IMG/VR virus record: IMGVR_UViG_3300048611_000030
Coordinates: 1 to 51,649 of that record
Reading direction: 5' to 3' (one strand)
DNA from: a virus
Taxonomy: Duplodnaviria; Caudoviricetes
Length of the DNA: 51,649 nt
Positions 6,660 through 45,214 of the stretch are shown piece after piece. The notes under the pieces were generated by a model. It had not been told where the DNA came from. It ran no database searches and saw nothing but the letters and a program-made list of their open reading frames with translations. Positions within the stretch are counted from its first letter, which is position 1; each line of letters begins with the position of its first letter. Both the position numbers and the translations under genes were made by a program.

Positions 6660-6687
6660 GGAACTAATTTAACCTTTGCTTGTCTAA
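6660..6687 (+). promoter_or_regulatory. sigmaE/ECF-type promoter at the head of the replication gene block
   Basis: GGAACT-N16-GTCTAA. Confidence 0.7.
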
Positions 6688-6784
6688 GTACATCCTATAT
6701 GCATATAAGCAAGTCTATAGACTTGCGATTGCATTTACTCCCCCGGAGGGGGTGCATTATGCATATATAATTAATAATATGTAC

Positions 6785-6812
6785 TTTGACAGCAAAAAAG
6801 GAAAAAAGTTCC
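6785..6812 (-). promoter_or_regulatory. sigmaE-type promoter, convergent with 6660
   Basis: Minus strand GGAACTT-ttttccttttttgct-GTCAAA, matching the RpoE consensus. Confidence 0.65.
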
Positions 6813-6824
6813 ATCGGAGGCAAT

Positions 6825-7013
6825 ATGAGTAGCAGACCGTCAAGCGGTACTATGGTTTACTGGCGATTAAAAAAGAGTGTGCCCGGACCGTGGTTGTTTG
6901 GGTACGTTACGTACGAGAAAGGACATGAGCTTTTGCGTATGGGCAGATACAATGGGGATTCACACGGAGGACAAATAGTTTCAGCCTCTGAGATTGAATG
7001 GAAACCCTACTGA
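6825..7013 (+). CDS. Hypothetical protein
   Basis: GGAGG RBS, ATG 6825. Confidence 0.65.
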   Translation: MSSRPSSGTMVYWRLKKSVPGPWLFGYVTYEKGHELLRMGRYNGDSHGGQIVSASEIEWKPY

Positions 7014-7053
7014 GGTTTCTTTGGAAGCGATGATTAACAACAAAGGAGACAAA

Positions 7054-7392
7054 ATGGCAATGTTTATGAATCATTTTCAAGAGTTCACTCGCAAGACAGC
7101 AATCTATCCGGAAGTTGGTACCGGCTCAGTACCCGCAATTTCGTATGTAGCGTTGGGGTTGGCAGGAGAGGCGGGGGAGATAGCCAACAAAGTCAAGAAG
7201 CTACTGCGTGACGGAGATAAGCCGGAACTGCGGGAGCAGATTGTATCGGAAATCGGCGATGCTATGTGGTATCTGTTTCGTCTTGCCGATGAGTTCAATG
7301 TGCAAGCAGGGGACCTTGCTTTCCAGAACATGACCAAGCTGCAAGATCGCCAGAAGCGCGGCGTCTTGGGCGGGTCCGGCGACCACAGATAG
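7054..7392 (+). CDS. mazG: MazG-like nucleoside triphosphate pyrophosphohydrolase
   Basis: LGLAGEAGEIANKVKK, EIGDAMWY, NMTKLQDR..RG..GGSGD motifs. Confidence 0.9.
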   Translation: MAMFMNHFQEFTRKTAIYPEVGTGSVPAISYVALGLAGEAGEIANKVKKLLRDGDKPELREQIVSEIGDAMWYLFRLADEFNVQAGDLAFQNMTKLQDRQKRGVLGGSGDHR

Positions 7393-7400
7393 GAGGATTT

Positions 7401-7583
7401 ATGTTTTCAAGTCTTGGTGATTTACTTAAGGCAGGGGTTGGATTAGTTATAGAAACACCTGCGTCAATCGTTGCCGATGTTGCAACTCTTGGAGGGGTCC
7501 TAAACGATAAGGACAAGCCCTATACCGTAGAAGCCTTGGAAAAGGTTTTAGATAATATTTCTAACGCCACAAAACCGGAGTAA
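7401..7583 (+). CDS. Small hypothetical phage protein
   Basis: AGGAGG RBS; 60 aa. Confidence 0.75.
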   Translation: MFSSLGDLLKAGVGLVIETPASIVADVATLGGVLNDKDKPYTVEALEKVLDNISNATKPE

Positions 7584-7847
7584 ATGGAAATGGAATACTG
7601 TTTAAGTTGCAATGACGCTGTACTAACAACCGAAGAAGATGTAGACACAGGAACGTGTGCATCATGCCGCGGTGTGGAACGTAATGAGGACACCAATCCT
7701 CGCGCACTGGACTTCCGCGGACCTCGCCGGGAACGGTTCGTTGATGGGGTTGCTGGCTTCCTGCACGACCAGCGCGGCATGGACCCAACCATCGGACCTG
7801 AGCCCGAAGATGTGGGACTAACTGAGGAGGACGACGATGGCTGTTGA
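7584..7847 (+). CDS. Hypothetical Zn-ribbon, acidic protein
   Basis: CLSC...CASC; GGAG RBS. Confidence 0.65.
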   Translation: MEMEYCLSCNDAVLTTEEDVDTGTCASCRGVERNEDTNPRALDFRGPRRERFVDGVAGFLHDQRGMDPTIGPEPEDVGLTEEDDDGC

Positions 7848-8208
7848 TATAAACCGATTGCACTGTTGCAGTAATCCGTACCAAGGGAGCACCAAGAAAG
7901 TCCTATGTGTTTGCTCAGCAGGATTGCTTCGTTCTCCAACGGCAGCGGTAGTTCTTTCGCAAGAGCCATTCAACTACAACACCAGAGCAGCCGGGGTACA
8001 TAGCTACGCCTTAATTCAGGTGGACCGTGTACTTACGGAGTGGGCTGATGAGATTGTTGTCATGGAGTCGTACATGCTTGAGACGCTTAAAGACAAGCTG
8101 CCACTCAACAAACCTGTGATTGTACTTGGTATTAAGGACAACTACGCGTACAGAGATAAGGAATTAATGGCGTTAATCAAACAGCGATACTTGGAGGCAG
8201 ACGAGTGA
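7837..8208 (+). CDS. Low-molecular-weight protein-tyrosine-phosphatase-like protein
   Basis: VLCVCSAGLLRSPTA (CX5R P-loop), WADEIVVME, LGIKDNY. Confidence 0.85.
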   Translation: MAVDINRLHCCSNPYQGSTKKVLCVCSAGLLRSPTAAVVLSQEPFNYNTRAAGVHSYALIQVDRVLTEWADEIVVMESYMLETLKDKLPLNKPVIVLGIKDNYAYRDKELMALIKQRYLEADE

Positions 8209-8456
8209 TAACATTAGCAGCGTTGTGTACATCGGTTGTAATCGGCCTTGGTTTGGGTGTTGAGAAAGGCCCTAACCAGCATATGTACGGAACAGAGCCT
8301 ACTGGTACGTTTCGTGCGTCGTGCGGCTTACCCAACAACTTCGCTCTGGAATATGACCACAAGTCGGCCATACCGGATGGGTTTCCGTTCAATGATCGGA
8401 AGGATAAGAATACATCGGACGTATTCTCCCTGACCTATACTTTCAAACTAAAATGA
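8205..8456 (+). CDS. Small exported beta-rich protein
   Basis: GTG start with GGAGG; hydrophobic N-terminus; alternating C-terminal FSLTYTF. Confidence 0.6.
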   Translation: MITLAALCTSVVIGLGLGVEKGPNQHMYGTEPTGTFRASCGLPNNFALEYDHKSAIPDGFPFNDRKDKNTSDVFSLTYTFKLK

Positions 8457-8689
8457 GCACAGATATTTTTGTTGTTACTATGTATCGGCATGGAAGCCGC
8501 GAAAAGCACAGCTACGTATTGGGGGCATGGTTGTCAGAGAGACGAGCAAAGAGGGAGGCGAAAAAAGAGCAGGAAGTTAGAGCAAACCTATACATGCCTG
8601 AGATACTTAGCGTAAACCCGAAGTTTAACGGCGACGAAAACCTGCACATAAACGAGGTTGTGTTGCCATTACAGGAGGTCGTGTTATGA
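8453..8689 (+). CDS. Hypothetical protein
   Basis: Start overlaps the upstream stop; 78 aa. Confidence 0.65.
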   Translation: MSTDIFVVTMYRHGSREKHSYVLGAWLSERRAKREAKKEQEVRANLYMPEILSVNPKFNGDENLHINEVVLPLQEVVL

Positions 8690-8898
8690 ACTGGCATTTT
8701 AAGTTGGTTGTTATTGTTGGCACACTGGCGATTGTAATCCTTCTTGGATTGGTCGCCATGTACGGCAAGGGAATCAATCGAGGCATGATAGTTCAGCCAC
8801 CACAGGCTGTACGCATCGTCCACAGCATTGAGTGCACGCCTAAGGAGGAATCATATTTTCCTCCGGGGGAAGTGTACCTTATGTCGGATATGATGTAA
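8686..8898 (+). CDS. Small membrane protein
   Basis: AGGAGG RBS; one N-terminal TM helix. Confidence 0.65.
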   Translation: MNWHFKLVVIVGTLAIVILLGLVAMYGKGINRGMIVQPPQAVRIVHSIECTPKEESYFPPGEVYLMSDMM

Positions 8899-9764
8899 TG
8901 GAACACGGACGGGCTAAATGGGCTGCTTGCATAGATCACATTAAGCTGATCGCTGCAACAGAACTGGATGTGGGCATGAATACCAAGGAACATCTGTGTC
9001 CGTGGTGTGATGGAGGCCAATCACGGGAACGAGCGTTTAGCCTGACCCGCACGGAGGTAGGATTGCTGTACAAATGCCATCGGGCATCGTGTGGGAAGTC
9101 GGGGTTTATTCCGACTATTGCAAGTAGTCTGCCGACTACACCACAACGAGAAGAGCGGAGAAAGACACGACCATATACGGGCGAATATCTGCCCTTGAAT
9201 GGTACGGAGATACAATTCTTTTACGACGAATATGGACTAGAGTACAAAGAAATATGTGATTTTAGCTATGACCCGCGTACAGGTAGAATTGTACAACCGT
9301 GGCACACTGTATTAGGACACCTCGGCGGGCACATACTGAGAGGGTATCACGGGCAGAAGCCAAAGTCCCTGACGTACTGGAACAACGACGGCGTGCCAAT
9401 GGTAGATTACTACATAAAGTTTCCGTGGGATAGGTCCATTTGGCTTGTGGAAGATCAGCTTAGTGCTATCAAGTTGTCTCGATTTGAGAACTCGGCGGCG
9501 CTGCTTGGTGCGTATATCTCCCCGGAGGTTGCGGAGGATATTCGTAAGAATTTCCATACTGTGTATCTGGCATTGGACAACGATGCTACCATAAAAGCCA
9601 TCGAGCAGACGTTGACGTATAATCTCTACTTCCGGAACTTTCGGGTAGTGGTTCTGTCTAAAGACGTGAAAAATATGAATAACGATGAAATACAAAAACT
9701 AATAGGGGACCACGTTGGAAGCAAAAATCTTAGGAGCCCTGCTACACGAGAGGCGCGCATTTGA
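8898..9764 (+). CDS. DNA primase (Zn finger + TOPRIM)
   Basis: CPWC...CHRASC, LVEDQLSAIK, ALLG, LALDNDA motifs. Confidence 0.9.
   Translation: MEHGRAKWAACIDHIKLIAATELDVGMNTKEHLCPWCDGGQSRERAFSLTRTEVGLLYKCHRASCGKSGFIPTIASSLPTTPQREERRKTRPYTGEYLPLNGTEIQFFYDEYGLEYKEICDFSYDPRTGRIVQPWHTVLGHLGGHILRGYHGQKPKSLTYWNNDGVPMVDYYIKFPWDRSIWLVEDQLSAIKLSRFENSAALLGAYISPEVAEDIRKNFHTVYLALDNDATIKAIEQTLTYNLYFRNFRVVVLSKDVKNMNNDEIQKLIGDHVGSKNLRSPATREARI
9634..9661 (+). promoter_or_regulatory. sigmaE-type promoter upstream of the helicase
   Basis: GGAACTT-tcgggtagtggttct-GTCTAA, inside the primase 3' end. Confidence 0.65.
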
Positions 9765-10923
9765 GGAACTTACTAACCTCAAAGAGGATGGGGCTGGATT
9801 TTCAGACCTTGGCAAGATCATCTTCGCCGAGATTGCGGCTTTTTATCGGCGTGACCCGGCTGCTAACGCTGCTGATAAGGAAATCCTTCTGGCAGCGGTT
9901 GAGCAACGGCTAAACAACGATAAGCAATTTAAGCGGCTTGCTGAGGTAATAAAAGAACTACAGGTAGTATCCCTACCTAACCTGCTGGAGATATACCGCA
10001 AGCAAAAGAAGTTCATGGTGGCGAATGAACTGGCGGTAGCCTTGCTCAAGCAGGATGATGATAAGGTAAGGGAACTTTCGCAGAAGTGGTCTGCGTGGGA
10101 TGTGGGTGTAGAGCAAGATAAGGAGGAGACAGCCGATGTTTTTGAGAAGATTGATATTGAATCTGTTTTTGCGCCTATCCAGAGGGAAAATCTCATGCCT
10201 CTTTTCCCTGCGTCTCTTAATGAACTTACTGATGGAGGCGCGACACGGGGCGATCATATTCTTATCGCAGGACGAGTGGAAAACGGTAAAAGCCTCGTTG
10301 CCGTTAATCTCGCATCTGGACTCTGCTTCTCAGGGAAACGAGTTCTTTATATTGGCAATGAGGATGCCCCCGCACGAATGATTCCTCGCTTCGTCAGTCG
10401 CCTTACCGGACTGACCAAGCAGCAGATCATTCAGGACTATAAATCCGCACAGAATAAGGCCAATAAGAGGGGGTTTAATAACCTCATTTTCATCAATGCG
10501 CGTGAGTGCTCATTGAACCATATTGACAATTGGCTGTCTAAGTACAAACCAGACGCAATGGTTGTGGACCAAATCCGCAATATCAATGCGGGTAATGTGG
10601 AAAAGACTGAGCAGTTGGAGAAGGTGGCTACGGGGATACGCCGCCTAATCAAGAAGCACAATGTTCTTGGAATAAGTATCTCACAGTCCATGAACGATGC
10701 GGAGCATATCAACAAGCTGATCGGAGATATGGCCGATGTGGCTAACAGTAAGGTGGATTTGCCGGGTCAGGCTGATTTGCTTATTCTGCTGGGAACGAAT
10801 GATGATTACCGTAACCGCAACATGGTTATGTTCTCCATTCCAAAGAATAAGCTGAGCGGCTGGCACGGCAGTTATCCTGTTCGGATTAACCCGTTGTTGT
10901 CTCAGGTGGAGGATGTTGCATGA
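9715..10923 (+). CDS. DnaB-like (SF4) replicative helicase
   Basis: Walker A GRVENGKS, YIGNED, VVDQIRN, ISQ, PKNK motifs; TTG start. Confidence 0.92.
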   Translation: MEAKILGALLHERRAFEELTNLKEDGAGFSDLGKIIFAEIAAFYRRDPAANAADKEILLAAVEQRLNNDKQFKRLAEVIKELQVVSLPNLLEIYRKQKKFMVANELAVALLKQDDDKVRELSQKWSAWDVGVEQDKEETADVFEKIDIESVFAPIQRENLMPLFPASLNELTDGGATRGDHILIAGRVENGKSLVAVNLASGLCFSGKRVLYIGNEDAPARMIPRFVSRLTGLTKQQIIQDYKSAQNKANKRGFNNLIFINARECSLNHIDNWLSKYKPDAMVVDQIRNINAGNVEKTEQLEKVATGIRRLIKKHNVLGISISQSMNDAEHINKLIGDMADVANSKVDLPGQADLLILLGTNDDYRNRNMVMFSIPKNKLSGWHGSYPVRINPLLSQVEDVA

Positions 10924-11099
10924 AGGCATACATAGCAAAGAGAGAATATGACTATGAAGGCTTTATTGTACTTGGGGTGTTTAGTACTAATACTTTAGCA
11001 GAGGCGGCATGTGAAAAAGACAAGGGAGATAGGAAACAGAGGAAGTGGCTTCCAGCAGATGGGTATTCTACGGAGGAATTTGTTGTTGATGAAACGTAG
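10920..11099 (+). CDS. Small hypothetical protein (59 aa, not in the ORF track)
   Basis: ATGA overlap with the helicase stop, GGAGG RBS; MKAYIAKREYDYEGFIVLGVFST...EEFVVDET*. Confidence 0.7.
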   Translation: MKAYIAKREYDYEGFIVLGVFSTNTLAEAACEKDKGDRKQRKWLPADGYSTEEFVVDET

Positions 11100-11111
11100 T
11101 CTGTAGACTAC
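11096..11111. repeat. Dispersed palindrome GTAGTC-tgta-GACTAC
   Basis: Supplies the TAG stop of the 10920 ORF; followed by AAAGGA RBS. Confidence 0.95.
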
Positions 11112-11123
11112 AAAGGATTCTAT

Positions 11124-11345
11124 ATGAAACCATATCCAGTTTGGGTTTGTTTTCCTTGCGGGGAGGCGGCGCGTGGTACGCCGATGCCGAAAGGACACGT
11201 GTGCACAGTACACATGGACATCTGCCATGTGTGTGGAAAAGTAGAGTATGTTACGGAGCCAAGGGACTTTGGCTATCCTAAGTTTGCTGGACATGCGTAT
11301 GAATCGAAATCGGCCTATAAGAGAAAAGAGGCACAAATGCTATGA
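11124..11345 (+). CDS. Small Zn-binding hypothetical protein
   Basis: CFPC...CHVC, TEPRDFGYP. Confidence 0.75.
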   Translation: MKPYPVWVCFPCGEAARGTPMPKGHVCTVHMDICHVCGKVEYVTEPRDFGYPKFAGHAYESKSAYKRKEAQML

Positions 11346-11863
11346 GTGTTCTATTCTGTAGTGATTTGCATCTTGGGCACGCCCTCGCTGCTAAACTGCG
11401 TGGGTACGATTCCGTAGAGAAGCACGACCAAGACGTGATCTATAAGCTAATGCAGCAATGCACTAAGCGCACGTTGTTGTGGATTCTTGGTGATGTAGCC
11501 ATGAAGCGCGAGTCGTTGGATTTACTCAACGCTGTGTATTGCGAGAAGCGTCTAGTGCGGGGGAACCACGATAACTTCCAACTTGGGGTGTATCTCAAAT
11601 ACTTCCAAGAGATTCACGGATTCCTGCGGTATAAGGAAATGTGGCTGAGTCATTGCCCGATTCATCCACAGGAAATGTGTCGAGTAAAGTTAAATGTGCA
11701 CGGGCACATCCACAAGGGAGCCATGACTCCGGAACTTCCGTTGCCGTACTTCAACGTCAATTGGGATTTTTGGGGACGTGCTGTTTCATTAGATGAAATT
11801 ATCAAAGTGAGGGATGAATATCATGCGAGGAACTCAGGCGAAGTTAGCAAGACGGTTGGCTGA
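11342..11863 (+). CDS. Calcineurin-like metallophosphoesterase
   Basis: SDLHLGH, LGD, GNHD, SHCP, HGHIH motifs. Confidence 0.92.
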   Translation: MSVLFCSDLHLGHALAAKLRGYDSVEKHDQDVIYKLMQQCTKRTLLWILGDVAMKRESLDLLNAVYCEKRLVRGNHDNFQLGVYLKYFQEIHGFLRYKEMWLSHCPIHPQEMCRVKLNVHGHIHKGAMTPELPLPYFNVNWDFWGRAVSLDEIIKVRDEYHARNSGEVSKTVG

Positions 11864-12134
11864 GGCTGTACTTTTGCGGGAGGGGATTGACCACAATAAA
11901 ATCCCATACAGGAAGTATGATGAAAAAGCTACAAAGAAGATAGTGCGGGCACTAAATAAGGAAGGGGAAGAAGTGTTGGTTCCTGTAATTAGAATAACAA
12001 AGGTGTTGAACGCCGCATGTCTAAGAAAACAGCAAAGATTGTCGAAGAATCGTCTCAAGAAATTCCTACGGAGGGGCTTGCGCTCCACGTTGCTCATCCG
12101 AACTCAGCTATCTACCTTACAGGCAAATATCTAA
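11814..12134 (+). CDS. Basic hypothetical protein
   Basis: 106-aa ORF filling the gap before PolA; overlaps both neighbours. Confidence 0.5.
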   Translation: MNIMRGTQAKLARRLAEAVLLREGIDHNKIPYRKYDEKATKKIVRALNKEGEEVLVPVIRITKVLNAACLRKQQRLSKNRLKKFLRRGLRSTLLIRTQLSTLQANI

Positions 12135-13906
12135 CGGTAGACCTTGAAACAACGAGCTTAGATTACGGGGACCCACGTAATACAAATAATCGCCTTCTGC
12201 TGGCTGTGGCAAAGCGGTGGGATGGAAAAAGGTTGGTTGCGTGGGGCTCCGAGTTTGAGCAACAAGAACTAAAGCGGTGGATTGACGAAGCCGATTTTGT
12301 AGTAGCCCAAAACACCAAGTTTGAGTTAGGTTGGTTCTACCGCATGGGGTGGGACCTTACCAAAATCCTCCCTTATTGCACAGTAATAGGAAAGTATGTC
12401 TACGACGGGAATCGTCATTCTAAGCGTGATCTTAATTCTCTGGCTAAGTTTTACGGTGTGGCTGGAAAACACGAGCATGTTGCTAGCCTTATTGCTTTGG
12501 GGGTTGACCCTAGCGATATTCCGCCTTCGTGGTTAGAGGAATACTGCATCCAAGACGTAGAAGCTGAGGAGCAGATATTTCTCAGGCAGCGCAAGCAGCT
12601 TGGTGAAATGGGGCTTATTCCCGCAACGTATACGCGGAACATCTTTACTCCGGTGCTGGTGGAACTGGAGGCGCGAGGGATGCAGTTGGACCCTGAGCGA
12701 GTACGCATCATCTACAATAACTACAACAAGAAGTATCTCGACCTACAGAGGCAACTGAATGAGTATACAGAGGGAATTAATCAAGATAGTCCAAAGCAAA
12801 TGGCCGAATTCCTCTACGACCGATTGGGTTTTAGTGAACCTACGGACTTCCGAGGTAATCCCATTAGAACAGACTCCGGTAGACGCACCACGAATAAGGA
12901 CGATCTTAAACTCCTTAAGCCGCGTACTAAGCGCCAACGAGAATTTATTGAACTCTATCTTAAGTACGGGGAAGCAAAAGCCAAGGTAACAAAGTATCTA
13001 CAGAAGTTTGTAGACTGTTGTGAGCAAGATGGAGGTTGGTTACAGGCGAACTTCAACCAGTGCGTAACCAAGACGCACCGCACATCCAGTTCTGGAACTA
13101 AGCATAAGATTCAGTTTCAGAATATGGACCGTAACTTGAAGCCCATATTCACTACGCGAAAGAAGGGGTGGAAGTTTGGAGAAGCTGACGAAGCACAACT
13201 CGAATTTCGCGTGGCTGTGTTTTTGGGGAATGATCGGCAGGGCCGGAAAGACGTTGAAGCAAAAGCGGACGTACACCGCTTCACGGCGTCGGTGTTGCAT
13301 GATGTACCAGAGGAGGAAGTTACTGCCGACTGGCGACAGGATGCGAAACCAGATACTTTCAAGCCTCTCTACGGCGGAACTAGCGGAACTCCGCAACAAC
13401 AGAAGTATTACAAAGCCTTTAAGGAAAAGTACAGCGACATAGCGAAAGTACAGGAGGGCTGGACGCATGAGGTTCTAAAGAATAAGAAATTGGTAATGCC
13501 GCACGGGTTCATCTTTTATTGGCCGTTTTGCAAAATGACCAATAGAGGGTATATCACGGAAACATCCAAGATATACAATGCTCCGGTGCAGCACTTTGCT
13601 ACAGCAGAGATTGTTCCTATTGGTGTGACGTACCTGTGGCATCGTATGAAAGCAGCAAAGACCGAGAGTTTCTTGGTCAATACGGTACATGACAGCGCCA
13701 ATGCGGAAATCTGTCCGGGAGAGGAGCAGATATTTACGGAACTTTCCCAGCAGGCAATGTCTAATGATGTTGTGTGGTACTTAAAGACGGTGTACAACAT
13801 TGACTTCGATGTTCAGTTGGATGCTGAGGTATCTATCGGTACTCACTGGAACGAGAAGGGTGATTGGCAGAAAAAATGGTTAATAACAAACGAGGAGAGA
13901 GCATGA
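12017..13906 (+). CDS. polA: Family A DNA polymerase with 3'-5' exonuclease
   Basis: Exo DLET, NTKFE, YCIQD; polymerase motif A DEAQLEFR, motif B RQDAKPDTFKPLYG, motif C VHDS. Confidence 0.95.
   Translation: MSKKTAKIVEESSQEIPTEGLALHVAHPNSAIYLTGKYLTVDLETTSLDYGDPRNTNNRLLLAVAKRWDGKRLVAWGSEFEQQELKRWIDEADFVVAQNTKFELGWFYRMGWDLTKILPYCTVIGKYVYDGNRHSKRDLNSLAKFYGVAGKHEHVASLIALGVDPSDIPPSWLEEYCIQDVEAEEQIFLRQRKQLGEMGLIPATYTRNIFTPVLVELEARGMQLDPERVRIIYNNYNKKYLDLQRQLNEYTEGINQDSPKQMAEFLYDRLGFSEPTDFRGNPIRTDSGRRTTNKDDLKLLKPRTKRQREFIELYLKYGEAKAKVTKYLQKFVDCCEQDGGWLQANFNQCVTKTHRTSSSGTKHKIQFQNMDRNLKPIFTTRKKGWKFGEADEAQLEFRVAVFLGNDRQGRKDVEAKADVHRFTASVLHDVPEEEVTADWRQDAKPDTFKPLYGGTSGTPQQQKYYKAFKEKYSDIAKVQEGWTHEVLKNKKLVMPHGFIFYWPFCKMTNRGYITETSKIYNAPVQHFATAEIVPIGVTYLWHRMKAAKTESFLVNTVHDSANAEICPGEEQIFTELSQQAMSNDVVWYLKTVYNIDFDVQLDAEVSIGTHWNEKGDWQKKWLITNEERA
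13738..13764 (+). promoter_or_regulatory. sigmaE-type promoter variant upstream of SSB
   Basis: GGAACTT...GTCTAA with a spacer one base shorter than the other copies. Confidence 0.45.
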
Positions 13907-14538
13907 GCACAAGCGTAGTCGAGGGGACTGTTGAATTTGTAAAGCAGAACGCAGCGGGCTATTACGCCGCTAAGATGAGCGACGGCCAGTGGTACGGCTG
14001 CAACAAGGATAAGCCTGAGTTTGATAAGGGGGACAACATCCGTTTTGAGATTGTGACCAATGGTCGCTACCTGAATATGGTTATGGAGACTGTTGAAATG
14101 CTCGGCAAGAGTGCGGCTCCGGCGCGTAAGGCCCCTCCGGCCCGTAGCGGTGGTGGTGCACAGAAGTTCACCAAGGATGTGTCCAAGGACGAGTATTGGA
14201 AGGCCAAGGAGGCTCGTGATATTGCTCGTGATGAGCGGCTTGCTAAGCGCGACACCATCGTTCAGAACGAGATACGCTTGCAGGCATCCCGCAATGCAGC
14301 CATCGAGTTGATGGGTATTGCCTTGTCCAGCGGCATTGTTGTGCTCAAGGATGAGAAAAAGAAGGGCCAGAACTTTGACATCCTTACTACCTATGTGGAC
14401 AAGCTGACCTCTAAGTATTATGATGCCACCAAGGCTATTAATGCTGAAATTGAGGCTCCTGATCTGGACCCGGTGGAAGCACACGAGGCGGAACCTGCTG
14501 GCGACGAGGAGGACTTCGACGACGCACTCCGTTTCTAA
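13903..14538 (+). CDS. Putative single-stranded DNA-binding protein
   Basis: Follows PolA; beta-rich N-terminus, acidic tail ending in aromatic F (EEDFDDALRF); strong codon bias. Confidence 0.65.
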   Translation: MSTSVVEGTVEFVKQNAAGYYAAKMSDGQWYGCNKDKPEFDKGDNIRFEIVTNGRYLNMVMETVEMLGKSAAPARKAPPARSGGGAQKFTKDVSKDEYWKAKEARDIARDERLAKRDTIVQNEIRLQASRNAAIELMGIALSSGIVVLKDEKKKGQNFDILTTYVDKLTSKYYDATKAINAEIEAPDLDPVEAHEAEPAGDEEDFDDALRF

Positions 14539-14612
14539 TATGGAGTTGTTGTTAATCGCAATAGTGCTGTATCTAATCTTTATAAAAGAATAACTATAAA
14601 AGGATAATAAGA

Positions 14613-14933
14613 ATGATTGAAGGTCAGCGGGTGTACGACAACGAAATGTATGCAGTTGTGGTTGCTGTTTCTCCCAAAACTCCGGAAGTTCCACAGAACG
14701 AGGATACCCTTGTCTATTCTGTGGTGAACAAGAACACAGAGGTTGCGGAGTATTTCACCAACCAGTTGTTCGAGGCGTGCCAGAACGCCGATTGGTTGGC
14801 GTTTATGATGAAGGACAATAACTGGCAGAAGATTATGCAGGAAAAGAAGGAGGGCTTTTATACGCACTTTAAGCCCCTATCTAATCCGGCAATGACTGCC
14901 AAGGAACTTACCTCCTCTGGTCCATTGAATTAA
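14613..14933 (+). CDS. Hypothetical protein
   Basis: AAGGA RBS; 106 aa. Confidence 0.75.
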   Translation: MIEGQRVYDNEMYAVVVAVSPKTPEVPQNEDTLVYSVVNKNTEVAEYFTNQLFEACQNADWLAFMMKDNNWQKIMQEKKEGFYTHFKPLSNPAMTAKELTSSGPLN

Positions 14934-14935
14934 TT

Positions 14936-14951
14936 GTAGTCGGCCGACTAC
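14936..14951. repeat. Dispersed palindrome GTAGTC-ggcc-GACTAC
   Basis: Fills the gap between stop 14933 and ATG 14955. Confidence 0.95.
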
Positions 14952-14954
14952 ATT

Positions 14955-15818
14955 ATGAAGTGGACTCCCAAACTTGCTGTAATTGACTTCGATGTTATGC
15001 TTTACATGTGCGGATATGCCGCGCAGCATACTAATCATCGGGTCTATGAAAAGGGCGCAGCGGAATACTGCGCCTCTTTCAAATACAAACGCGATGCTGT
15101 TGCTCACATAAAAGGCATGGAGGATGAGTATGAGATAAAGGCGGAGACTGAGGTTGCTCCGTTCAGCCATGCCGCGCAGAACGTGAAGCAGCTAATGCTT
15201 AAGATTCGGGATGCGATTGGGGCTGCTGCATACAAGGGATACCTCACCGGGAAAGGGAATTTCCGGGAGACCTTGGCTACGATTCAGGGGTATAAGGCCA
15301 ATCGAGACCCCACACTCAAGCCGTATCATTACCGAGAACTCAAGAAGTACATCTTGGAGAATCTTGGAGCCATGATAGTTGATGGCATCGAAGCGGACGA
15401 TGCAATTGCCATCGAGCATATGCGTCATTACAAGCCGAACCAATCGTACGAGGAGGCTAAAAGCGTCATTGCCACGATTGATAAAGACCTCAATATGATT
15501 CCGGGGTGGCATTACAACTTCCAGCAGGGGAAATGCTTTCATGTCAACGAGCACGAAGGTCTGCTTAGTTTTTATAGCCAGCTACTTACAGGGGATGCCA
15601 CCGATAACATCAGTGGTATTTACAAAGTCGGACCTGTCAAAGCTGCTAAAATACTGGCCGGTCTCAGTGATGAAATGGCGATGTTTGGAGCAGTACAAGC
15701 TGAATATAGAAAGGCATTTCCAGATGAGGATGTAAGTAAGCGCATAAAAGAGAACGGGCAACTTCTGTGGATTTGGAAAAAGGAGGATGATCTATGGGTT
15801 CCACCGAACGAACGATAG
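14955..15818 (+). CDS. 5'-3' exonuclease (T7 gp6 / FEN-like)
   Basis: IDFD, NFR...YKANR, EADD, DKDL, GDATDNISG..KVGPVKA motifs. Confidence 0.92.
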   Translation: MKWTPKLAVIDFDVMLYMCGYAAQHTNHRVYEKGAAEYCASFKYKRDAVAHIKGMEDEYEIKAETEVAPFSHAAQNVKQLMLKIRDAIGAAAYKGYLTGKGNFRETLATIQGYKANRDPTLKPYHYRELKKYILENLGAMIVDGIEADDAIAIEHMRHYKPNQSYEEAKSVIATIDKDLNMIPGWHYNFQQGKCFHVNEHEGLLSFYSQLLTGDATDNISGIYKVGPVKAAKILAGLSDEMAMFGAVQAEYRKAFPDEDVSKRIKENGQLLWIWKKEDDLWVPPNER

Positions 15819-16114
15819 ATAAGTGCCTTTCCTGTGGTACTGAATTGCTTTATGCAATAGGTATTGGTCCTTATTGTCCTAACCATGCATGCAAAAGAAT
15901 CGACTGGCAGCAGCCGGGCCCGCGACCTTCGATAAACATAACTCCGCCATATACAACCAGTGGTTTTGTTTTAGATCAAGTGGAGATTATTCGTCGCGCC
16001 CTTGAGCGGGGCAAGAGACGGGCAGAGCAAGGGTGTGTTGCAAGCGAGTCCTTAGATGTGTTCATTCATTGCCTTGATGAATTACAGAGGATTAAAGATG
16101 CTGTGGACGTGTGA
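15794..16114 (+). CDS. Hypothetical Zn-ribbon protein
   Basis: GGAGG RBS; CLSC...CPNHAC. Confidence 0.55.
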   Translation: MGSTERTIDKCLSCGTELLYAIGIGPYCPNHACKRIDWQQPGPRPSINITPPYTTSGFVLDQVEIIRRALERGKRRAEQGCVASESLDVFIHCLDELQRIKDAVDV

Positions 16115-16388
16115 TATTATCAATGGGCTGTTTGAGTTGTTCGGCGGCGTACTGCTGTGGAAGAATGTACGTCAACTTCACAAGGACAAAGAGATAAAGG
16201 GAGTACATTGGTCCCCGGTGATGTTCTTCGCGGCATGGGGGTATTGGAATCTATACTACTACCCGTCCCTTAACCAATGGTTTAGCTTTGTAGCAGGGAT
16301 AAACATCGTAGCTGCAAATACAGTTTGGGTAGTTCAAATGATGTATTACATAAGGAAAAATAAAAATGATGCAATTCGGGCGGTATAA
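16098..16388 (+). CDS. Small three-helix membrane protein (PQ-loop/SemiSWEET-like)
   Basis: Three hydrophobic segments, KDKEIKGV loop, WGYWNLYYY. Confidence 0.7.
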   Translation: MLWTCDIINGLFELFGGVLLWKNVRQLHKDKEIKGVHWSPVMFFAAWGYWNLYYYPSLNQWFSFVAGINIVAANTVWVVQMMYYIRKNKNDAIRAV

Positions 16389-17073: not shown

Positions 17074-17192
17074 GTCCAGACGGCGATATATTTATGAATA
17101 TATTTGGGGCGTGTGTGGCTGCTATTATGGCTGCTATTGCTGGTCTTGTTTGGATTGGTGTGTATTATGTATATACGCAGGTGATTCAATGA
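17070..17192 (+). CDS. 40-aa membrane peptide (not in the ORF track)
   Basis: ATGA overlaps at both ends; single TM helix IFGACVAAIMAAIAGLVWIGVYYVY. Confidence 0.6.
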   Translation: MSPDGDIFMNIFGACVAAIMAAIAGLVWIGVYYVYTQVIQ

Positions 17193-17641: not shown

Positions 17642-17978
17642 AGTACGGTATGAGGAACTAGGGATACCGTACACCATAGAAGCGGTGTACAACCCTGATT
17701 GGATTCTTCCCAATGGGATTATTGTCGAAACTAAAGGGAACTTTGATGCGAAAGATCGGTCTAAGCATCTACTGGTACAGCAGCAATACCCTTGGTTGGA
17801 TATTCGCTTGGTGTTCCAGCGGGACAATAAACTATATAAGAAATCCGAAACCCACTACAGCGAATGGTGTAAGAAATACGGCATCTTATTTGCAATTGGT
17901 AAAGTACCTGCCGCGTGGCTTAAAGAACCAAAAAAAGATGATGCCTACCTTCTGGCCATAGGTGTTTTAGATGAATAA
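17553..17978 (+). CDS. T7 endonuclease I-like Holliday junction resolvase
   Basis: YEE..IPY, YNPDWILPNGIIVETKG, DRSKHL, DIRLVF motifs; start uncertain (GTG 17553 or upstream). Confidence 0.9.
   Translation: MRTKKGKRKLRLKSHFERMTLENFRRSGIKVRYEELGIPYTIEAVYNPDWILPNGIIVETKGNFDAKDRSKHLLVQQQYPWLDIRLVFQRDNKLYKKSETHYSEWCKKYGILFAIGKVPAAWLKEPKKDDAYLLAIGVLDE
17737..17764 (+). promoter_or_regulatory. sigmaE-type promoter inside the endonuclease I gene
   Basis: GGAACTT-tgatgcgaaagatcg-GTCTAA. Confidence 0.6.
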
Positions 17979-18342
17979 AATATGTAGCAAATGTGGCACA
18001 GAGAAAGACTTAACTGACTTTTGGAAAAATCGGGATGGGCGCAAAGGCAGGCACTCCAGATGTAGGGAGTGCATGAAAAGCCGTTTAGTTAATTATAGAC
18101 CAGATAAACATAGATATAAAAAATATGGCACTACTCATGTTGATAAAACATGCGCTATTTGTGGAATAGAAGTTACTCAATACGGAAGATCGGGCACAGC
18201 CGCATGTATAGATCATTGCCATAAAACAAAAATTGTGCGTGGAACTTTATGTAACAATTGTAATAGAGCATTGGGGCTATTCAAAGATAATAAAATGATA
18301 TTACAAGCTGCTGTAAACTATTTAGAGAAGTGGGTACCATGA
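17971..18342 (+). CDS. Endonuclease VII-family HNH homing endonuclease
   Basis: CAIC, IDHCH...VRGTLCNNCNRALGLFKDN; AT-rich. Confidence 0.9.
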   Translation: MNKICSKCGTEKDLTDFWKNRDGRKGRHSRCRECMKSRLVNYRPDKHRYKKYGTTHVDKTCAICGIEVTQYGRSGTAACIDHCHKTKIVRGTLCNNCNRALGLFKDNKMILQAAVNYLEKWVP

Positions 18343-39251: not shown

Positions 39252-39505
39252 TTGTAAAACAATCCGCCAATACGTACTCCTAGATAATAAATGTACGCAA
39301 TAAAATAATTGGTCTTATTTTGCATACACCGCAAGAACAGCTTATCTGCCTCTTTCCTAGTAATACCATCAGGGCGAAAGCGCCTGAGGTAATCGTGCAT
39401 CTGGCAACATGGTGTTCCTATTTCAGGAGCCATAGTGCACCCATCTGAGGGATGCCCGGCGGCTTCCATGTCTTTTCTAAACTGCTCGGCTTGGGCAAGA
39501 TTCAT
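39248..39505 (-). CDS. DUF1353 / phospholipase A2-like small protein
   Basis: SDGCT...CCQMHD, RKEADK.F, YLGVRIGG motifs. Confidence 0.65.
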   Translation of the reverse strand: MNLAQAEQFRKDMEAAGHPSDGCTMAPEIGTPCCQMHDYLRRFRPDGITRKEADKLFLRCMQNKTNYFIAYIYYLGVRIGGLFYK

Positions 39506-40431
39506 TAGTCGTAGTATCCGCGAATTTCATAAGAAGCTGTGCCGTTATTCCCAGCATCATCACTAAGTTTCAACGAGTATCCCGTGTCCTTTACAATACA
39601 TACCTGCTGTACTGTTCGCGCTATAACGGCATTTCCTGACATAGCAACTTGTTCCGTTCCGTCAGCTACCGGCGTCAACTGCGAAACTGTCCCGGTAGCA
39701 TCGCCATAACAATCTACCGATGCTGTTCTACGAACTGGTGCACTATTTCCGGACCTTGCCGCTATATCTAATGCAACTATTAAAGCCGTTGAATCCGCCG
39801 ATGGGTCACTTAATGCAGCAACTACATCTCTGGTTAAACTAGCTGTAGCGGAATACGCTGTAGTTTTCATACACAAATTAGGGCCTACGCGCGTGTAGCC
39901 AGCAGCGCAGGCTTTGGTGCTGGAGAAAGTTCCCTCGGTAGAAAGATCACCCCCAACAGCAGCGGTACCAGCGACAGATAAATCATTAATAGCAAAATTT
40001 TGTGCGGCATCCCCCGCTACTTTCGCTTTGTCTGTATCCAATTCATTTATTGCTGTTTGTATTGTAGTAGCTGCAATATTCCCCGCTGGCGTATTGCTAT
40101 CCGCAATTGTTTGCGGAGACACCCACGCAACCACAGTGCCATCTGTCTTAAGAACTTTATTGGCGTTTCCTGTCTGAGACGGAAATGCTGCGGCTGTTCC
40201 AGTTGTTGCTTGAAGCTGACGAAGATTAACTGCATCTGTAGACAAACTTCCGTCAGCAACATTGTTGATCTGATTAGAACCCATATCCAGAACCGCCGCC
40301 ATTGCATTAGGGGCTGTGCCGTCCCTGCTCAATGTATTTTCAATAGCTGTTTCGATAGACGTGTTGTTTGTATTATACGTACTAACAACCGCATATCCTG
40401 AAACGATGTCAAGCAAAGTTAATTTTGCCAT
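39505..40431 (-). CDS. Tail fibre protein
   Basis: N-terminal LSRDGTAPNAM...LDMGSNQINNVAD...DAVNLRQL fibre motif; PSQTGNANKVLKTDG. Confidence 0.8.
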   Translation of the reverse strand: MAKLTLLDIVSGYAVVSTYNTNNTSIETAIENTLSRDGTAPNAMAAVLDMGSNQINNVADGSLSTDAVNLRQLQATTGTAAAFPSQTGNANKVLKTDGTVVAWVSPQTIADSNTPAGNIAATTIQTAINELDTDKAKVAGDAAQNFAINDLSVAGTAAVGGDLSTEGTFSSTKACAAGYTRVGPNLCMKTTAYSATASLTRDVVAALSDPSADSTALIVALDIAARSGNSAPVRRTASVDCYGDATGTVSQLTPVADGTEQVAMSGNAVIARTVQQVCIVKDTGYSLKLSDDAGNNGTASYEIRGYYD

Positions 40432-40827: not shown

Positions 40828-41079
40828 TTACGCCATGCGAGCCGAACGCGTACGCTTGAAGCTCCTATTGCTAGACCTAGAACGAACCCTAGTATTACTC
40901 CGTCCATTACCCCCTCCTTTTACAAGAGGAATTTTATGGTCTACGTCCTTGCCATCGCCTTTACGAACACGGCCTTCCCGCATAAGCTGGCGACGCGCTT
41001 TGTTTCTCATAGCACGCCGCTTCTTCTGCTCAGGCTTTCCTTGGTAGTTCTCGTATTCTTTTTTGTAATCTCTAGCCAT
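40828..41079 (-). CDS. Small HNH endonuclease
   Basis: RDYKKEY, GDGKDVDHKIPL.KGG.N...N.R...RSSNRS. Confidence 0.85.
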   Translation of the reverse strand: MARDYKKEYENYQGKPEQKKRRAMRNKARRQLMREGRVRKGDGKDVDHKIPLVKGGGNGRSNTRVRSRSSNRSFKRTRSARMA

Positions 41080-42775
41080 TGTTCTCTGCTACACCTACCC
41101 GTGGTAGTGCGTGTTCTTCGCCTACGGTCTCTCCGTAATTATCGGTAAACCACTGAACATACTGTTTTGACCACATTATATCATTGGCATAATTCATAAG
41201 GTAAACTTTTGCTACCTTTGGAGACTCCGAACCAGTTATATCTACCCGTACCCCGTGAAACGTCCTGTTACCGGGATAAAGATAATCGTGGAATCCTTGC
41301 GCGTACTCGGTTACCACGTCAGCTACTTCAACATCTTCCGCTGTCACTTCCGGTGGAGCCGTGAAATTAACAGAGCCGTTGGTTGTGCCCAAATGAAAGA
41401 CGTTGAACGCTTCAGCCAAGTTCCCGGTGTAAGCCGCTCTCTGGTATTTCAAACCACATCCATAGTGATAGTCACTGTGTAACGGGATGAAAAACCCCCG
41501 CGTGCCGTTAGTGATTGGATTATCCATCAAGGACTTTGGCGTTTGTCCTGACTGGGTAATCAATCGTTGGTACTCGGCTTCGGCATGGTTATGCAGGGCG
41601 TGTTGCGTGCCGTATTCCTTAACACTGACATCGACGTTCACCACCCCCGCGCCTTGTGTCGCCAGATACCGCCATCCTGTAGACATACCGAAGAAGGTAA
41701 AAGTCTTGTTGTGGGTATTGATCGCTGTCAGTGTGTCGGTGATCTGATTGGTCCCGTATACGGTGACTTCGGTAATGGGGTCTGCGTAGGACATGCTGGC
41801 GCTTCCCACGGATGAAGAAACTCTGTCCATCGCAGCGAGACAGCAAGGCCCCAAACTTTTAGTCCAGTGATTCGCTACCGTGTCTGCGCTCTGAGCCGAA
41901 GTAGGTTGAATCAGGCCGTAGAAAGCATCCCATGCCGTCTTACCTACCCCGTCCACTCCGGCGGAAACAAACCGAGCATTGGGATATGTCGTGATTAACG
42001 CCGACCACCCCAAGTCATTGTCAAATTCATGGTCTCCCCACTGAGCAAAAACATTCAGGTTTTTTCTACAGAAGGCGCGGTTGGTTTCCCTGCCCCATAA
42101 CAATTTAACTTGGTTTCCACTACTCGAAATATCCGAGTACAGCGGGGCGGCATCAATCCCCGTCATCCCCAAGACGCAACAATAGGCGATCAGGTAATCA
42201 TCGACATCCAGAGTTGTGTCAGGGTTTCCGCCTGAGACAAGCCCGGTGCCCCCATCGCCGTTATCCGTGTCGTCTACATTCAGGGCATCGACATACCCCA
42301 AATCATCCACAAAAAGCACTCCGGCAACGGGTAATACTCCGCTGTCGTAGTAGGTTTTTGTGTGCTGCCAATAACCCGGCACGGTTGCGGGGTTCGTTCC
42401 CGCTGAGTTTGTCAGTTCGGTGTTGTTGTCGCACCCAGCGAAAAAGAAGGCAAAATCATCGTAAGCTCTCGGCTCGGTCATTAAAGAACCGGAGTCTGAA
42501 TTGGCCCCTTGAGAGACCGTCCAACTGTAACGGGTAAACGCAGACAGACCCGTTATATCAAGAACTCCGGTCCAGACGATATTCGTGCCTCTAGCAGTCA
42601 GCGTCAATCCGATTCCGCTGACATAACTGAGTCCGTTGACTGTAACTGTAACCGGGTCAGACGTGGGGTCGTTGACTGTCGCCACCAACAATTTACAACT
42701 AGTGGTGGTGTTGTCTCCGGGAACACAAGTAACCCGGTTAGGCGTCGTATAAGTCGGCGTCGTGATATAGGTCAT
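41072..42775 (-). CDS. PhoD-like metallophosphoesterase with N-terminal FN3-like domain
   Basis: FFAGCD, FVDDLGYVD, QWGDHEFDND, HSDYH motifs; ITGLSAFTRYSW FN3-like strand; no signal peptide. Confidence 0.65.
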   Translation of the reverse strand: MTYITTPTYTTPNRVTCVPGDNTTTSCKLLVATVNDPTSDPVTVTVNGLSYVSGIGLTLTARGTNIVWTGVLDITGLSAFTRYSWTVSQGANSDSGSLMTEPRAYDDFAFFFAGCDNNTELTNSAGTNPATVPGYWQHTKTYYDSGVLPVAGVLFVDDLGYVDALNVDDTDNGDGGTGLVSGGNPDTTLDVDDYLIAYCCVLGMTGIDAAPLYSDISSSGNQVKLLWGRETNRAFCRKNLNVFAQWGDHEFDNDLGWSALITTYPNARFVSAGVDGVGKTAWDAFYGLIQPTSAQSADTVANHWTKSLGPCCLAAMDRVSSSVGSASMSYADPITEVTVYGTNQITDTLTAINTHNKTFTFFGMSTGWRYLATQGAGVVNVDVSVKEYGTQHALHNHAEAEYQRLITQSGQTPKSLMDNPITNGTRGFFIPLHSDYHYGCGLKYQRAAYTGNLAEAFNVFHLGTTNGSVNFTAPPEVTAEDVEVADVVTEYAQGFHDYLYPGNRTFHGVRVDITGSESPKVAKVYLMNYANDIMWSKQYVQWFTDNYGETVGEEHALPRVGVAENNG

Positions 42776-44006: not shown

Positions 44007-44012
44007 TATTCT

Positions 44013-44246
44013 TTACTCTCCGTATACTTTCTTGCGTATTGTGGGTAGGTGCTTTTTGTAGGTTCTTATCCGCTCATCATCCAACTCGTCTTTATCTGAG
44101 GCTTTTCTTTCTTCGGATTCCTCTGCTTGCCTGAACGGCTCGTTAGCGTTCTCAAGGTCTCCCTTCTCAATAGCTTCTCTTCGCTTTCGTAACTTATCCG
44201 CGAATGAGCCCGGACCGGCTAGATCGTCTACCTTTCGTTTAGGCAA
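44013..44246 (-). CDS. Highly charged hypothetical protein
   Basis: TTG start with AGGAG RBS. Confidence 0.65.
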   Translation of the reverse strand: MPKRKVDDLAGPGSFADKLRKRREAIEKGDLENANEPFRQAEESEERKASDKDELDDERIRTYKKHLPTIRKKVYGE

Positions 44247-44306
44247 TGTGCACTCCTGTTATGTTCTGGGGGGTTTTGGTAAAGCAGACCCCGTGAACTG
44301 CAATTA

Positions 44307-44383
44307 TGGTGGACCCGGTAGGATTCAAACCTACAACCCCCTGCGTGCAAAGCAGGTGCTCTGTCAATTCGAGCTACAGGCCC
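44307..44383 (-). tRNA. tRNA-Ala(UGC)
   Basis: Cloverleaf, G3:U70, anticodon arm CCTGC-ttTGCac-GCAGG, encoded CCA. Confidence 0.93.
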
Positions 44384-44384
44384 T

Positions 44385-44460
44385 TGGTGCCCAACAGAGG
44401 AGTTGAACCTCCAACCGACGGTTTACAAAACCGCTGCTCTGCCAATTGAGCTAATCGGGC
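44385..44460 (-). tRNA. tRNA-Thr(UGU)
   Basis: Cloverleaf, GCGGT-ttTGTaa-ACCGT, encoded CCA. Confidence 0.93.
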
Positions 44461-44466
44461 ATACTG

Positions 44467-44540
44467 TGGAATCCCCGGTCGGATTTGCACCGACGTAGCT
44501 TGTTTTGCAGACAAGTACCTAACTACTCGGCCATGGGGAA
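44467..44540 (-). tRNA. tRNA-Cys(GCA), atypical
   Basis: CTTGT-ctGCAaa-ACAAG, U73 and CCA; T-loop TGCAAAT; acceptor mismatches. Confidence 0.8.
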
Positions 44541-44542
44541 TT

Positions 44543-44616
44543 TGGTGCGGGCTAGAGGACTCGAACCCCTATTGCCGGGTTGGAAGCCCGGTGCATAGCC
44601 TTTCTGCCAAGCACGC
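44543..44616 (-). tRNA. tRNA-Gly(UCC)
   Basis: CCGGG-ctTCCaa-CCCGG, TTCGA T-loop, encoded CCA. Confidence 0.9.
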
Positions 44617-44617
44617 G

Positions 44618-44962
44618 TTATACGTCTAGTTCTTGCAGCTTCTTACTACAGGTGGAAAGAATCAGTTCCGCGGTCTTTGCAGCCTCAGGATTACCACCCA
44701 TAACCTGATCTATGAAGATGAACAGGAGCTTCTTAATCTCCGGGTCGTTGGTCTTAATGGCATCCTTTAGCTGTTGCGAGGTAGCTCCGGCTTTAGCCAT
44801 AGTTCCCAAACCCTCAACTACCTGCATAAAGGATACTTCACAGAGCAGGTCTGCTTGCTCTTTGGTGTAGATTTTCTCAGCGTAGGCGTTCTGAACTGTA
44901 CCTACGATAACAGGAGCCATAATAAGAAGAGCTGCGAGTAGGAACGCTTTGGTAGATTTCAT
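44618..44962 (-). CDS. Secreted/periplasmic helical protein
   Basis: GGAGG RBS; Sec signal MKSTKAFLLAALLIMAPVIVGTVQNAYA; two Cys. Confidence 0.7.
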   Translation of the reverse strand: MKSTKAFLLAALLIMAPVIVGTVQNAYAEKIYTKEQADLLCEVSFMQVVEGLGTMAKAGATSQQLKDAIKTNDPEIKKLLFIFIDQVMGGNPEAAKTAELILSTCSKKLQELDV

Positions 44963-45186
44963 CAGTTTCACGGAAACCTCCGGTTTCATGTAGCAGGGCT
45001 ACTCTGGACGTAGCTCCATTTAATAATGTACCCCTATAAGTGCTCGATTTCGGACTCCAGTCCTGCTGCATCGCCCTAAGGCGATTTGAAATCTGCGCCT
45101 TCTTCGAGTCAAACTCTGCAAGGCCCCCAAGGGCCATTGTTACAGAGTGTTGTCTCTCAGAATGTGTATTTAATTATTAATGATCT

Positions 45187-45214
45187 TTAGACAGCAAGAA
45201 TTGCATAAAGTTCC
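45187..45214 (-). promoter_or_regulatory. sigmaE-type promoter heading the late (structural) arm
   Basis: Minus strand GGAACTT-tatgcaattcttgct-GTCTAA. Confidence 0.7.

Follow-up and report, generated by a model that had tools for sequence, protein, structure and literature searches.

Phages that lack an RNA polymerase of their own redirect the host polymerase by their own sigma factors, by activators or by anti-terminators, and T4 gp55 and SPO1 gp28 are phage-encoded sigmas. Here we describe, in the uncultured virus record IMGVR_UViG_3300048611_000030 (51,649 bases; hereafter the window, meaning this whole stretch), seven copies of a two-box DNA element, GGAACT-N16-GTCWAA and close variants, that have the form of promoters for the host envelope-stress factor sigmaE. 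No phage sigma was recognized in the window, and we propose that host sigmaE may drive the middle and late genes of this phage.

Two described podophages, phiEco32 (gp36) and Salmonella phage 7-11 (gp47), have no RNA polymerase of their own and use sigma70 promoters early and alternative-sigma promoters afterwards. phiEco32 founded the COOH-NH2 ligase family that is also present in the window, its gp79 is an early sigma70 inhibitor through which core enzyme is set free (PMC12276001), and its promoters consist of a single element, while those of 7-11 read GTAAtg-(16)-aCTA (PMC8948821). Unlike the window, both phages carry a sigma gene and use promoters unlike any host consensus; in the window no sigma gene was found and the sites follow a host-type sigmaE consensus.

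The Zobellviridae PA11, Klyazma and RIO-1 share with the window the two-arm genome plan with an amidoligase operon before the replication genes, and their portal, terminase, tail and polymerase genes are related (16-53% amino acid identity). They differ from it in that the gene slot holding their sigma contains none in the window or in its close relative G001, and in that PA11 and Klyazma lack the motif, RIO-1 having it only at background level. The Klyazma paper states that Zobellviridae have no RNA polymerase and that their transcription must be regulated differently, citing the sigma switching of phiEco32 (PMC9960094); the available text of the 2016 RIO-1 paper does not discuss promoters (PMC4819975). 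Podophages of the VpV262/SIO1 type, which have T7-like virion genes, have no RNA polymerase or sigma annotated; VpV262, 1.015.O and ICP2 differ from the window in carrying the motif only at background level, and the ICP2 record annotates sigma70-like promoters only. Our literature search, with most subscription journals outside its reach, found no description of a lytic phage with host-sigmaE-type middle and late promoters.

The sequence GGAACT-N16-GTCWAA matches the window exactly five times against 0.01 expected, and none of 100 dinucleotide shuffles reached five. Two variants, with an N15 spacer at 13738(+) and with TGAACC-N16-GTCTAA at 10514(+), bring the total to seven:

6660..6687, plus strand: P1, GGAACT-N16-GTCTAA, heading the replication block, with the next start codon 138 nucleotides (nt) downstream.
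6785..6812, minus strand: P2, GGAACT-N16-GTCAAA, facing P1.
9634..9661, plus strand: P3, GGAACT-N16-GTCWAA, in the 3′ end of the primase gene, 54 nt ahead of the helicase open reading frame (ORF).
10514..10541, plus strand: P4, the TGAACC-N16-GTCTAA variant, within the helicase gene.
13738..13764, plus strand: P5, the N15 variant, in the 3′ end of the DNA polymerase gene, 139 nt ahead of the next gene.
17737..17764, plus strand: P6, GGAACT-N16-GTCWAA, within the closing part of the endonuclease I gene, 309 nt ahead of the next start.
45187..45214, minus strand: P7, heading the 24-kb structural arm, with the top site-matrix score (28.7).

The −35 box is GGAACT at six of the seven sites, with TT next at five of those, and TGAACC at P4; the −10 box is GTCTAA at six sites and GTCAAA at P2. 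Genes lie on two opposed arms. The plus-strand arm runs from 45.6 kb, across the junction of the record ends, to 20.7 kb and carries early ORFs, then a seven-gene amidoligase/amidotransferase operon, then the replication genes; the minus-strand arm runs from 45.1 kb down to 20.7 kb with a holin-like ORF, four transfer RNA (tRNA) genes and the virion genes. Six of the seven sites run parallel to these genes, the exception being 6812(−). Of the two large non-coding gaps, one holds P1 and precedes the replication block and the other holds P7 and precedes the structural arm, and the −35 box of P1 starts immediately after the stop codon of the amidoligase operon.

A position weight matrix was built from 14 sites, seven from the window and seven from G001, a complete IMG/VR contig of 50,933 bases. 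In the window it gave nine matches versus 0.6 in Markov shuffles, and seven of the nine, which are the sites listed above, score 20.8-28.7. Allowing up to two mismatches to the consensus yielded 13 matches against 7.15 expected; this tolerance dilutes the enrichment, so the signal resides in the near-perfect sites. An earlier note on this DNA had reported the five exact sites, the two variants and the co-orientation of all but 6812 with their arm, and each of these statements holds at the coordinates and sequences given there.

Comparison with G001 indicates that it is the boxes that are retained. The two genomes are collinear at 65-75% DNA identity, and G001 has all seven sites at homologous places. 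Summed over the seven pairs, identical positions number 82 of 84 in the boxes, 82 of 111 in the spacers and 189 of 280 in the 20-nt flanks (boxes versus spacers, Fisher p = 2e-6). At P1 both boxes are unchanged (6/6 each) over a spacer matching at 7/16; P2 reads TGAACT-N16-GTCTAA in G001 with a spacer of 8/16; P3 and P6 keep 12/12 box positions with spacers of 12/16 and 10/16, respectively. P4, P5 and P7 are uninformative on this contrast because their surroundings are all conserved: the whole of P7 is identical (100%), and P4, whose flanks are as conserved as its boxes, is the weakest case. Boxes kept over rewritten spacers, as in the alignments of P1, P2 and P6, mark a two-box element whose spacing is fixed.

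The element extends to more distant relatives. Among 80 loci gathered through a four-sequence polymerase alignment (35-47% polymerase identity), some carry it in the form (G/T)GAACT(T)-N16-GTC(T/A/C)AA. Across whole contigs the matrix matched nine times in G001, five in G002, two in G003, three in G004 and two in G005, against 0.1-0.8 in Markov shuffles, and 11 of the 12 matches in G002-G005 point with the polymerase gene. As at P5, a site lies at or just past the 3′ end of the polymerase gene in L023, L041, L030 and L022. The motif-bearing relatives span 38-52% G+C. The observation made on the window is thereby confirmed and extended to a small clade of uncultured phages.

We next compare the element with the sigmaE promoter class. 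According to Rhodius et al. (2005; PMC1312014), the 28 sigmaE promoters mapped in E. coli have a −35 region GGAACTTTT and a −10 region (T/C)GGTCAAAA, with 15-19 nt between GGAACTT and TCAAA and a strong preference for 16; by that measure the phage spacing is 16 at six sites and 15 at P5. The enterobacterial regulon as there described (−35 GGAACTT(T), −10 GTC(A/T)AA, spacing 16) is the same in both boxes and in spacing; the earlier note had named GGAACTT-N16-TCAAA as the proteobacterial sigmaE consensus. The difference lies in what the sites precede, which in this lytic phage is replication and virion genes and not envelope-repair genes.

As a cross-check, the phage-derived matrix was scanned over 100 kb of E. 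coli K-12 sequence surrounding four genes of the sigmaE regulon. Its best matches fell directly upstream of rpoE (17.8), rpoH (13.8) and rybB (13.8), with a weaker one inside rseP, upstream of bamA (10.5), and none at ≥10 at the degP promoter. The site picked upstream of rpoE reads GGAACTTT-N-CTCTAA, and we take the sites picked upstream of rpoE, rpoH, rybB and bamA to be the mapped sigmaE promoters. Taken together, the phage sites (20.8-28.7) come nearer the consensus than these four host sites (10.5-17.8), a gap that is partly circular, the matrix having been trained on phage sites. Collectively, the conservation of the boxes over diverged spacers, the right spacing and the cross-prediction of E. 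coli promoters make it very probable that the sites are promoters of the sigmaE/ECF02 (RpoE) type, ECF denoting extracytoplasmic function sigmas. The two boxes are unlike each other, which argues against a binding site for a dimer.

The earlier note had recognized no ECF sigma gene, and wider searches agree. The models Sigma70_r2, r4_2, r4 and TIGR02937 and a profile of 43 PA11-type phage sigmas, each run against the six-frame translation of the window, returned nothing at E ≤ 10, nor did PA11 gp12 or RIO-1 gp19 as queries. Alignment of the 43-sigma profile by hhalign to 240 window ORFs of at least 60 amino acids (aa) gave a best probability of 3.1% with a profile that scores E. coli RpoE at 98.9% and misses RIO-1 gp19. 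For 48 protein entries on both arms, tables of Pfam or PHROGs matches with E cutoffs of 0.1 or 10 held no sigma beyond chance level. Bulk Pfam and PHROGs scans of 54 plus-arm ORFs showed no sigma family among the 25 of 39 and 25 of 63 families listed, and a bulk PHROGs scan of 29 minus-arm ORFs showed none among all 21 families.

Two isolated hits were set aside. The sigma entry phrog_5767 matched 35 residues of endonuclease VII at a chance-level E of 0.028, and a tblastn match of E. coli RpoE at 31379-31567(−), E 0.04, fell in a 90-aa ORF between tail genes that has no Pfam match there and was taken as chance. As for RNA polymerase, which the earlier note had also not recognized, no such family occurs among those listed in the plus- and minus-arm scans; the model for T7-type RNA polymerase (PF00940) had no match in the window and none in the control genomes either, so that part of the comparison is uninformative.

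Relatives place a sigma at one particular position. Their records put it between the helicase and DNA polymerase genes in PA11 (gp012, Pfam Sigma70_r2 at E 5e-16 to 4e-14), Klebsiella phage Klyazma (orf044) and RIO-1 (gp19), the last described as a putative sigma with reference to a clear sigma at the same position in related phages. The relative G006 has a 162-aa ORF in this slot with a weak r2 match (E 4e-4), and the phage sigma family has at least 100 members of ~160 aa each. The slot in the window is filled otherwise:

10920..12016, plus strand: helicase-DNA polymerase slot, containing a DUF7336 ORF, a 73-aa ORF and a metallophosphatase at 11342-11863.

The slot ORF at 11342-11863 was considered as a cryptic sigma and rejected, being a metallophosphatase (Pfam 9.4e-07) without similarity to PA11 gp12 or RIO-1 gp19. 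In G001 the slot is a gap of ~220 nt. Within the limits of these tools, the absence of a phage sigma is thus supported by sequence comparison.

Motif and sigma are distributed in a complementary manner. Sigma-bearing PA11, Klyazma and G006 have no matrix matches and RIO-1 has two weak ones versus 1.3 expected, while the motif-bearing window and G001-G005 gave no sigma match. In the 80 loci, a sigma profile (A4) matched at E ≤ 0.001 in L024, L025 and L064, none of which has a strict motif match; in 30 of the 80 at a matrix threshold of ≥17, 12 were motif-positive, none of these with a sigma, L024 and L025 had a sigma only and 16 had neither. VpV262, 1.015.O and ICP2 likewise have no recognized sigma. 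Among the relatives examined, motif and phage sigma are therefore mutually exclusive. The earlier note had supposed that similar promoters might already be annotated in relatives of phiRIO-1 and PA11; the PA11 and RIO-1 records annotate none, and these two phages encode a sigma instead. When bipartite motifs were sought de novo in the sigma-bearing relatives, with a view to their promoter type, the result was not discriminating. A quick polymerase tree groups the motif-bearing loci L021, L022, L023, L026, L030 and L060 with the window and places L041, L037 and L051 in a second motif-bearing clade. As a separate observation, the motif counter found CAAGG-N16-GGTCC eight times in Vibrio phage ICP2.

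We propose that middle and late transcription runs from the seven sites, read by a sigmaE-type sigma of the host, and give this reading a probability of roughly 0.55. The consensus copied in both boxes and in spacing, the failure to find an ECF-like protein, the empty sigma slot and the mutually exclusive distribution together probably make host sigmaE a more economical reader than a hidden phage factor. That the sites fire as promoters, and that host sigmaE reads them, is what we infer from sequence. Early genes, from 45.6 kb to the record end and on through 1-6.6 kb, would be transcribed by sigma70 holoenzyme at three sigma70-like promoters, two of which (45618 and 47848) the earlier note had already pointed out:

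45618..45646, plus strand: sigma70-like early promoter, TTGACA-17-TACACT with TG, 10/12.
46669..46697, plus strand: sigma70-like early promoter, TTAACA-17-TATCAT, overlapping a strong terminator-like hairpin at 46661-46683.
47848..47876, plus strand: sigma70-like early promoter, TTGACA-17-TACAAT with TG, 11/12.

The early region contains two strong terminator-like hairpins, and the 47848 promoter follows a bidirectional one at 47560-47582. The site matrix has no match at ≥14 from 45215 to the record end or in 1-5390, the nearest being a weak one (14.3) at 5391, which bears out the earlier note's finding of no sigmaE-type site among the early genes.

The replication block would be transcribed through P1, P3, P4, P5 and P6 by host core RNA polymerase with the host sigmaE-type ECF sigma, and the tRNA and virion arm through P7 by the same sigmaE-bearing core enzyme, with neither a sigma nor an RNA polymerase supplied by the phage. 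Free sigmaE might arise from envelope damage at entry, from early membrane proteins, or from an early sigma70 inhibitor that releases core enzyme. Provocation of envelope stress by early membrane peptides or by the amide-ligase operon, as the earlier note envisaged, is conjecture with which two early ORFs are compatible:

46749-46868 (39 aa) and 46901-47278 (125 aa), plus strand: early ORFs with strongly hydrophobic segments, judged by hydropathy.

No DegS-activating YxF C-termini were seen among the early ORFs. P2 would yield RNA antisense to the structured leader of P1. The promoter sequence leaves a delay of P7 relative to P1-P6 unexplained; conjectural causes would be the palindrome that overlaps its −35 box or a late arrival of that DNA end.

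The surroundings of P1/P2 and P7 contain further elements. P1 and P2 are convergent and ~85 nt apart (6660-6830), and the intervening P1 leader forms a closed three-way structure (−36.8 kcal/mol, z = −2.8). One of its hairpins persists in G001 although both of its sides have changed (GCAAGTCTATAGACTTGC versus GAGATTCTATAGAATCTC), and another, CTCCCCCGGAGGGGG, is almost unchanged. This arrangement could regulate the middle operon by antisense RNA, act as an attenuator, or be an origin primed by transcription. At P7, a palindrome AGTTCCC-N6-GGGAACT spans 45209-45228, its right arm being the −35 box; it is kept in G001 with one loop change, scores on the plus strand as a terminator-like hairpin, and may be an operator or insulator that times the late promoter.

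The strongest competing explanation is that the sites are promoters read by an unrecognized phage specificity factor, either a divergent sigma or a small early protein that re-targets a host sigma, in a switch of the phiEco32/7-11/PA11 type. We regard it as possible but doubtful. Several observations speak in its favor or weigh against host sigmaE. Related phages encode sigmas, some of which escape both Pfam and our profile: the 43-sigma profile gives RIO-1 gp19 only 0.2%, and Pfam r2 detects the Klyazma sigma only at E 0.0032, so a very divergent sigma could go undetected, and absence in such tools is negative evidence. G002-G005 are only 47-71% complete, and a sigma could fall in their missing parts. 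In the polymerase tree the sigma-bearing pair is nested among motif-bearing loci, with weak support of 86-93 in the Shimodaira-Hasegawa-like approximate likelihood ratio test. The constancy of the motif over relatives of 38-52% G+C, which presumably have different hosts, could reflect a conserved reader carried by the phages just as well as a sigmaE specificity kept among hosts. Bipartite N16 promoters do occur with phage sigmas, the 7-11 consensus being one (PMC8948821). Some 15 small early ORFs are without any assignment and, with a 249-aa first early gene, offer places for a hidden factor. That the host has a matching sigmaE is itself a premise, suggested by the motif, the proteobacterial-looking early promoters and the hosts of relatives. 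Moreover, sigmaE is normally held by RseA, so enough free sigmaE would be needed.

Against a hidden factor stands, first, the motif itself, which equals a host-type sigmaE consensus; a protein diverged beyond detection would hardly retain that specificity. A profile that recognizes E. coli RpoE finds nothing, the sigma slot is empty or otherwise filled in both the window and G001, and among the window's proteins none is common to all motif-bearing genomes yet absent from the motif-free ones. ECF sigmas have ~160 aa or more, and the unassigned early ORFs are all ≤127 aa apart from one:

45895..46644, plus strand: P0001, the first early gene, 249 aa, the only large unassigned early protein.

A first call of the P0001 ORF, 335 aa from 45637, overextends the gene; a good ribosome-binding site accompanies the start at 45895. 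The protein belongs to a family of at least 125 members of ~200-250 aa with no Pfam family or structural match, and its predicted fold is an all-helical bundle with a disordered basic tail (predicted local distance difference test score 82 when relatives were included, 65 in a first model). Foldseek returned no sigma among the top 50 hits, all at E > 0.6; the P0001 profile aligned to an ECF profile at 0.6%, no PDB sequence matched, and the Atlas yielded no cluster with a name. Fold, profile and family make P0001 an unlikely sigma in these models, although such absences do not disprove a role as a transcription factor. A 72-residue stretch of it has a 36% identical match in motif-free Vibrio phage 1.015.O, close to one end of the 1.015.O record.

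Less probable, indeed improbable in our judgment, is that the sites are accessory sigmaE-type promoters for stressed cells, with most transcription arising from sigma70 read-through or from unrecognized promoters. No terminator separates the amidoligase operon from P1, and a weak sigma70-like site at 45704(−) points into the late arm, both of which would suit such a role. Strong sigma70-like sites are nevertheless confined to the early region, and 1-20000 holds fewer than chance (20 versus 27.8 in shuffles). P7, fully conserved in G001, is the sole strong candidate before a 24-kb arm on the opposite strand that early read-through could not reach, and the retention of seven near-consensus sites across diverged genomes argues for a main role. 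The last alternative, another bipartite DNA signal for replication, packaging or a DNA-binding protein, is very improbable: conserved hairpins do lie between the facing P1 and P2 where the replication block begins, a possible origin, and P7 does overlap a palindrome, but the boxes are dissimilar, they follow a sigma consensus at the correct spacing, the matrix finds E. coli sigmaE promoters, and orientation is with the genes at 6/7 window sites and 11/12 in G002-G005.

The record itself is complete (CheckV completeness 100%). Bases 1-126 are identical to 51512-51637, and the COOH-NH2 ligase gene is split across the record ends, 51142-51648 covering profile positions 5-145 and 3-548 covering 110-260. 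From this 126-base overlap and the divided gene it follows that the record is a circularly closed assembly of ~51.5 kb, cut inside the ligase gene, with its gene set whole. The physical DNA ends probably sit in the non-coding 45215-45600, by analogy with RIO-1 and VpV262, which have their terminal repeats at that place. By eye, the inter-arm stretch 45300-45600 contains many GTGCA(T/A)T-like words and G/C runs (CCCCCCATACCCCCC, GCCGGGGGTGCATATTAT), and GGGGGTGCATTATGCATATA, which resembles these words, also occurs in the P1 leader. The repeat words may be end or origin sequences, or operator repeats.

Downstream of P7 the minus arm opens with a tRNA array:

44307-44616, minus strand: four tandem tRNA genes, Ala-UGC, Thr-UGU, Cys-GCA and Gly-UCC, before the virion genes.

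Small ORFs called within this stretch by a crude gene caller are spurious. Among cultured phages, VpV262-type Vibrio phages come closest by DNA polymerase (38-42% aa identity), and ICP2 and the SIO1 group by portal (~53%). PHROGs matches to portal, terminase, tail-appendage and internal virion proteins and to a family A polymerase, on two opposed arms, suggest a distant uncultured podophage relative of the Zobellviridae, with identities too low to fix genus or family. A 308-aa late protein at 39505-40431(−) has a repeat of the YadA stalk, from trimeric autotransporter adhesins (Pfam 1.1e-09), and is probably a fibre. Another, of 567 aa at 41072-42775, has 29 relatives in metagenomes and none in cultured phages or in G001, and is on that distribution probably a host-specific receptor-binding protein. 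As clues to the host, two likely receptor or virion proteins gave no phage match, the homologues of 41075-42775 are all without names, and megablast of the window against 5,426 E. coli genomes gave zero matches.

Furthermore, the window has its amidoligase operon and replication genes in common with G002-G006 at 24-46% aa identity, and none of these contigs, even the complete G006, matches the window's portal, terminase or tail genes. Judged by these gene comparisons, the replication module with its promoter type is joined to different virion modules across G002-G006 and the window.

A broader reading, which we consider evenly balanced, is that a lineage of lytic podophages without a sigma drives all of its middle and late genes by host sigmaE, with envelope damage or early proteins that free sigmaE from RseA acting as the clock of infection; the ECF-type sigma that sister lineages carry in their own slot would be the alternative solution, the two having been exchanged in evolution. 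No relative examined combines a sigma of its own with sigmaE-type promoters, a phyletic pattern through which the question can be tested on isolates. Were the reader a hidden phage factor instead, it would be a sigma-like protein missed by current models yet specific for sigmaE promoters. If host sigmaE is the reader, the sites would form a natural set of very strong sigmaE promoters, and it would be a different strategy for a lytic phage to place its whole middle and late programme under a stress sigma of the host. Phage development would then be tied to the envelope-stress response, and the rpoE/rseA status of the cell would control its susceptibility.

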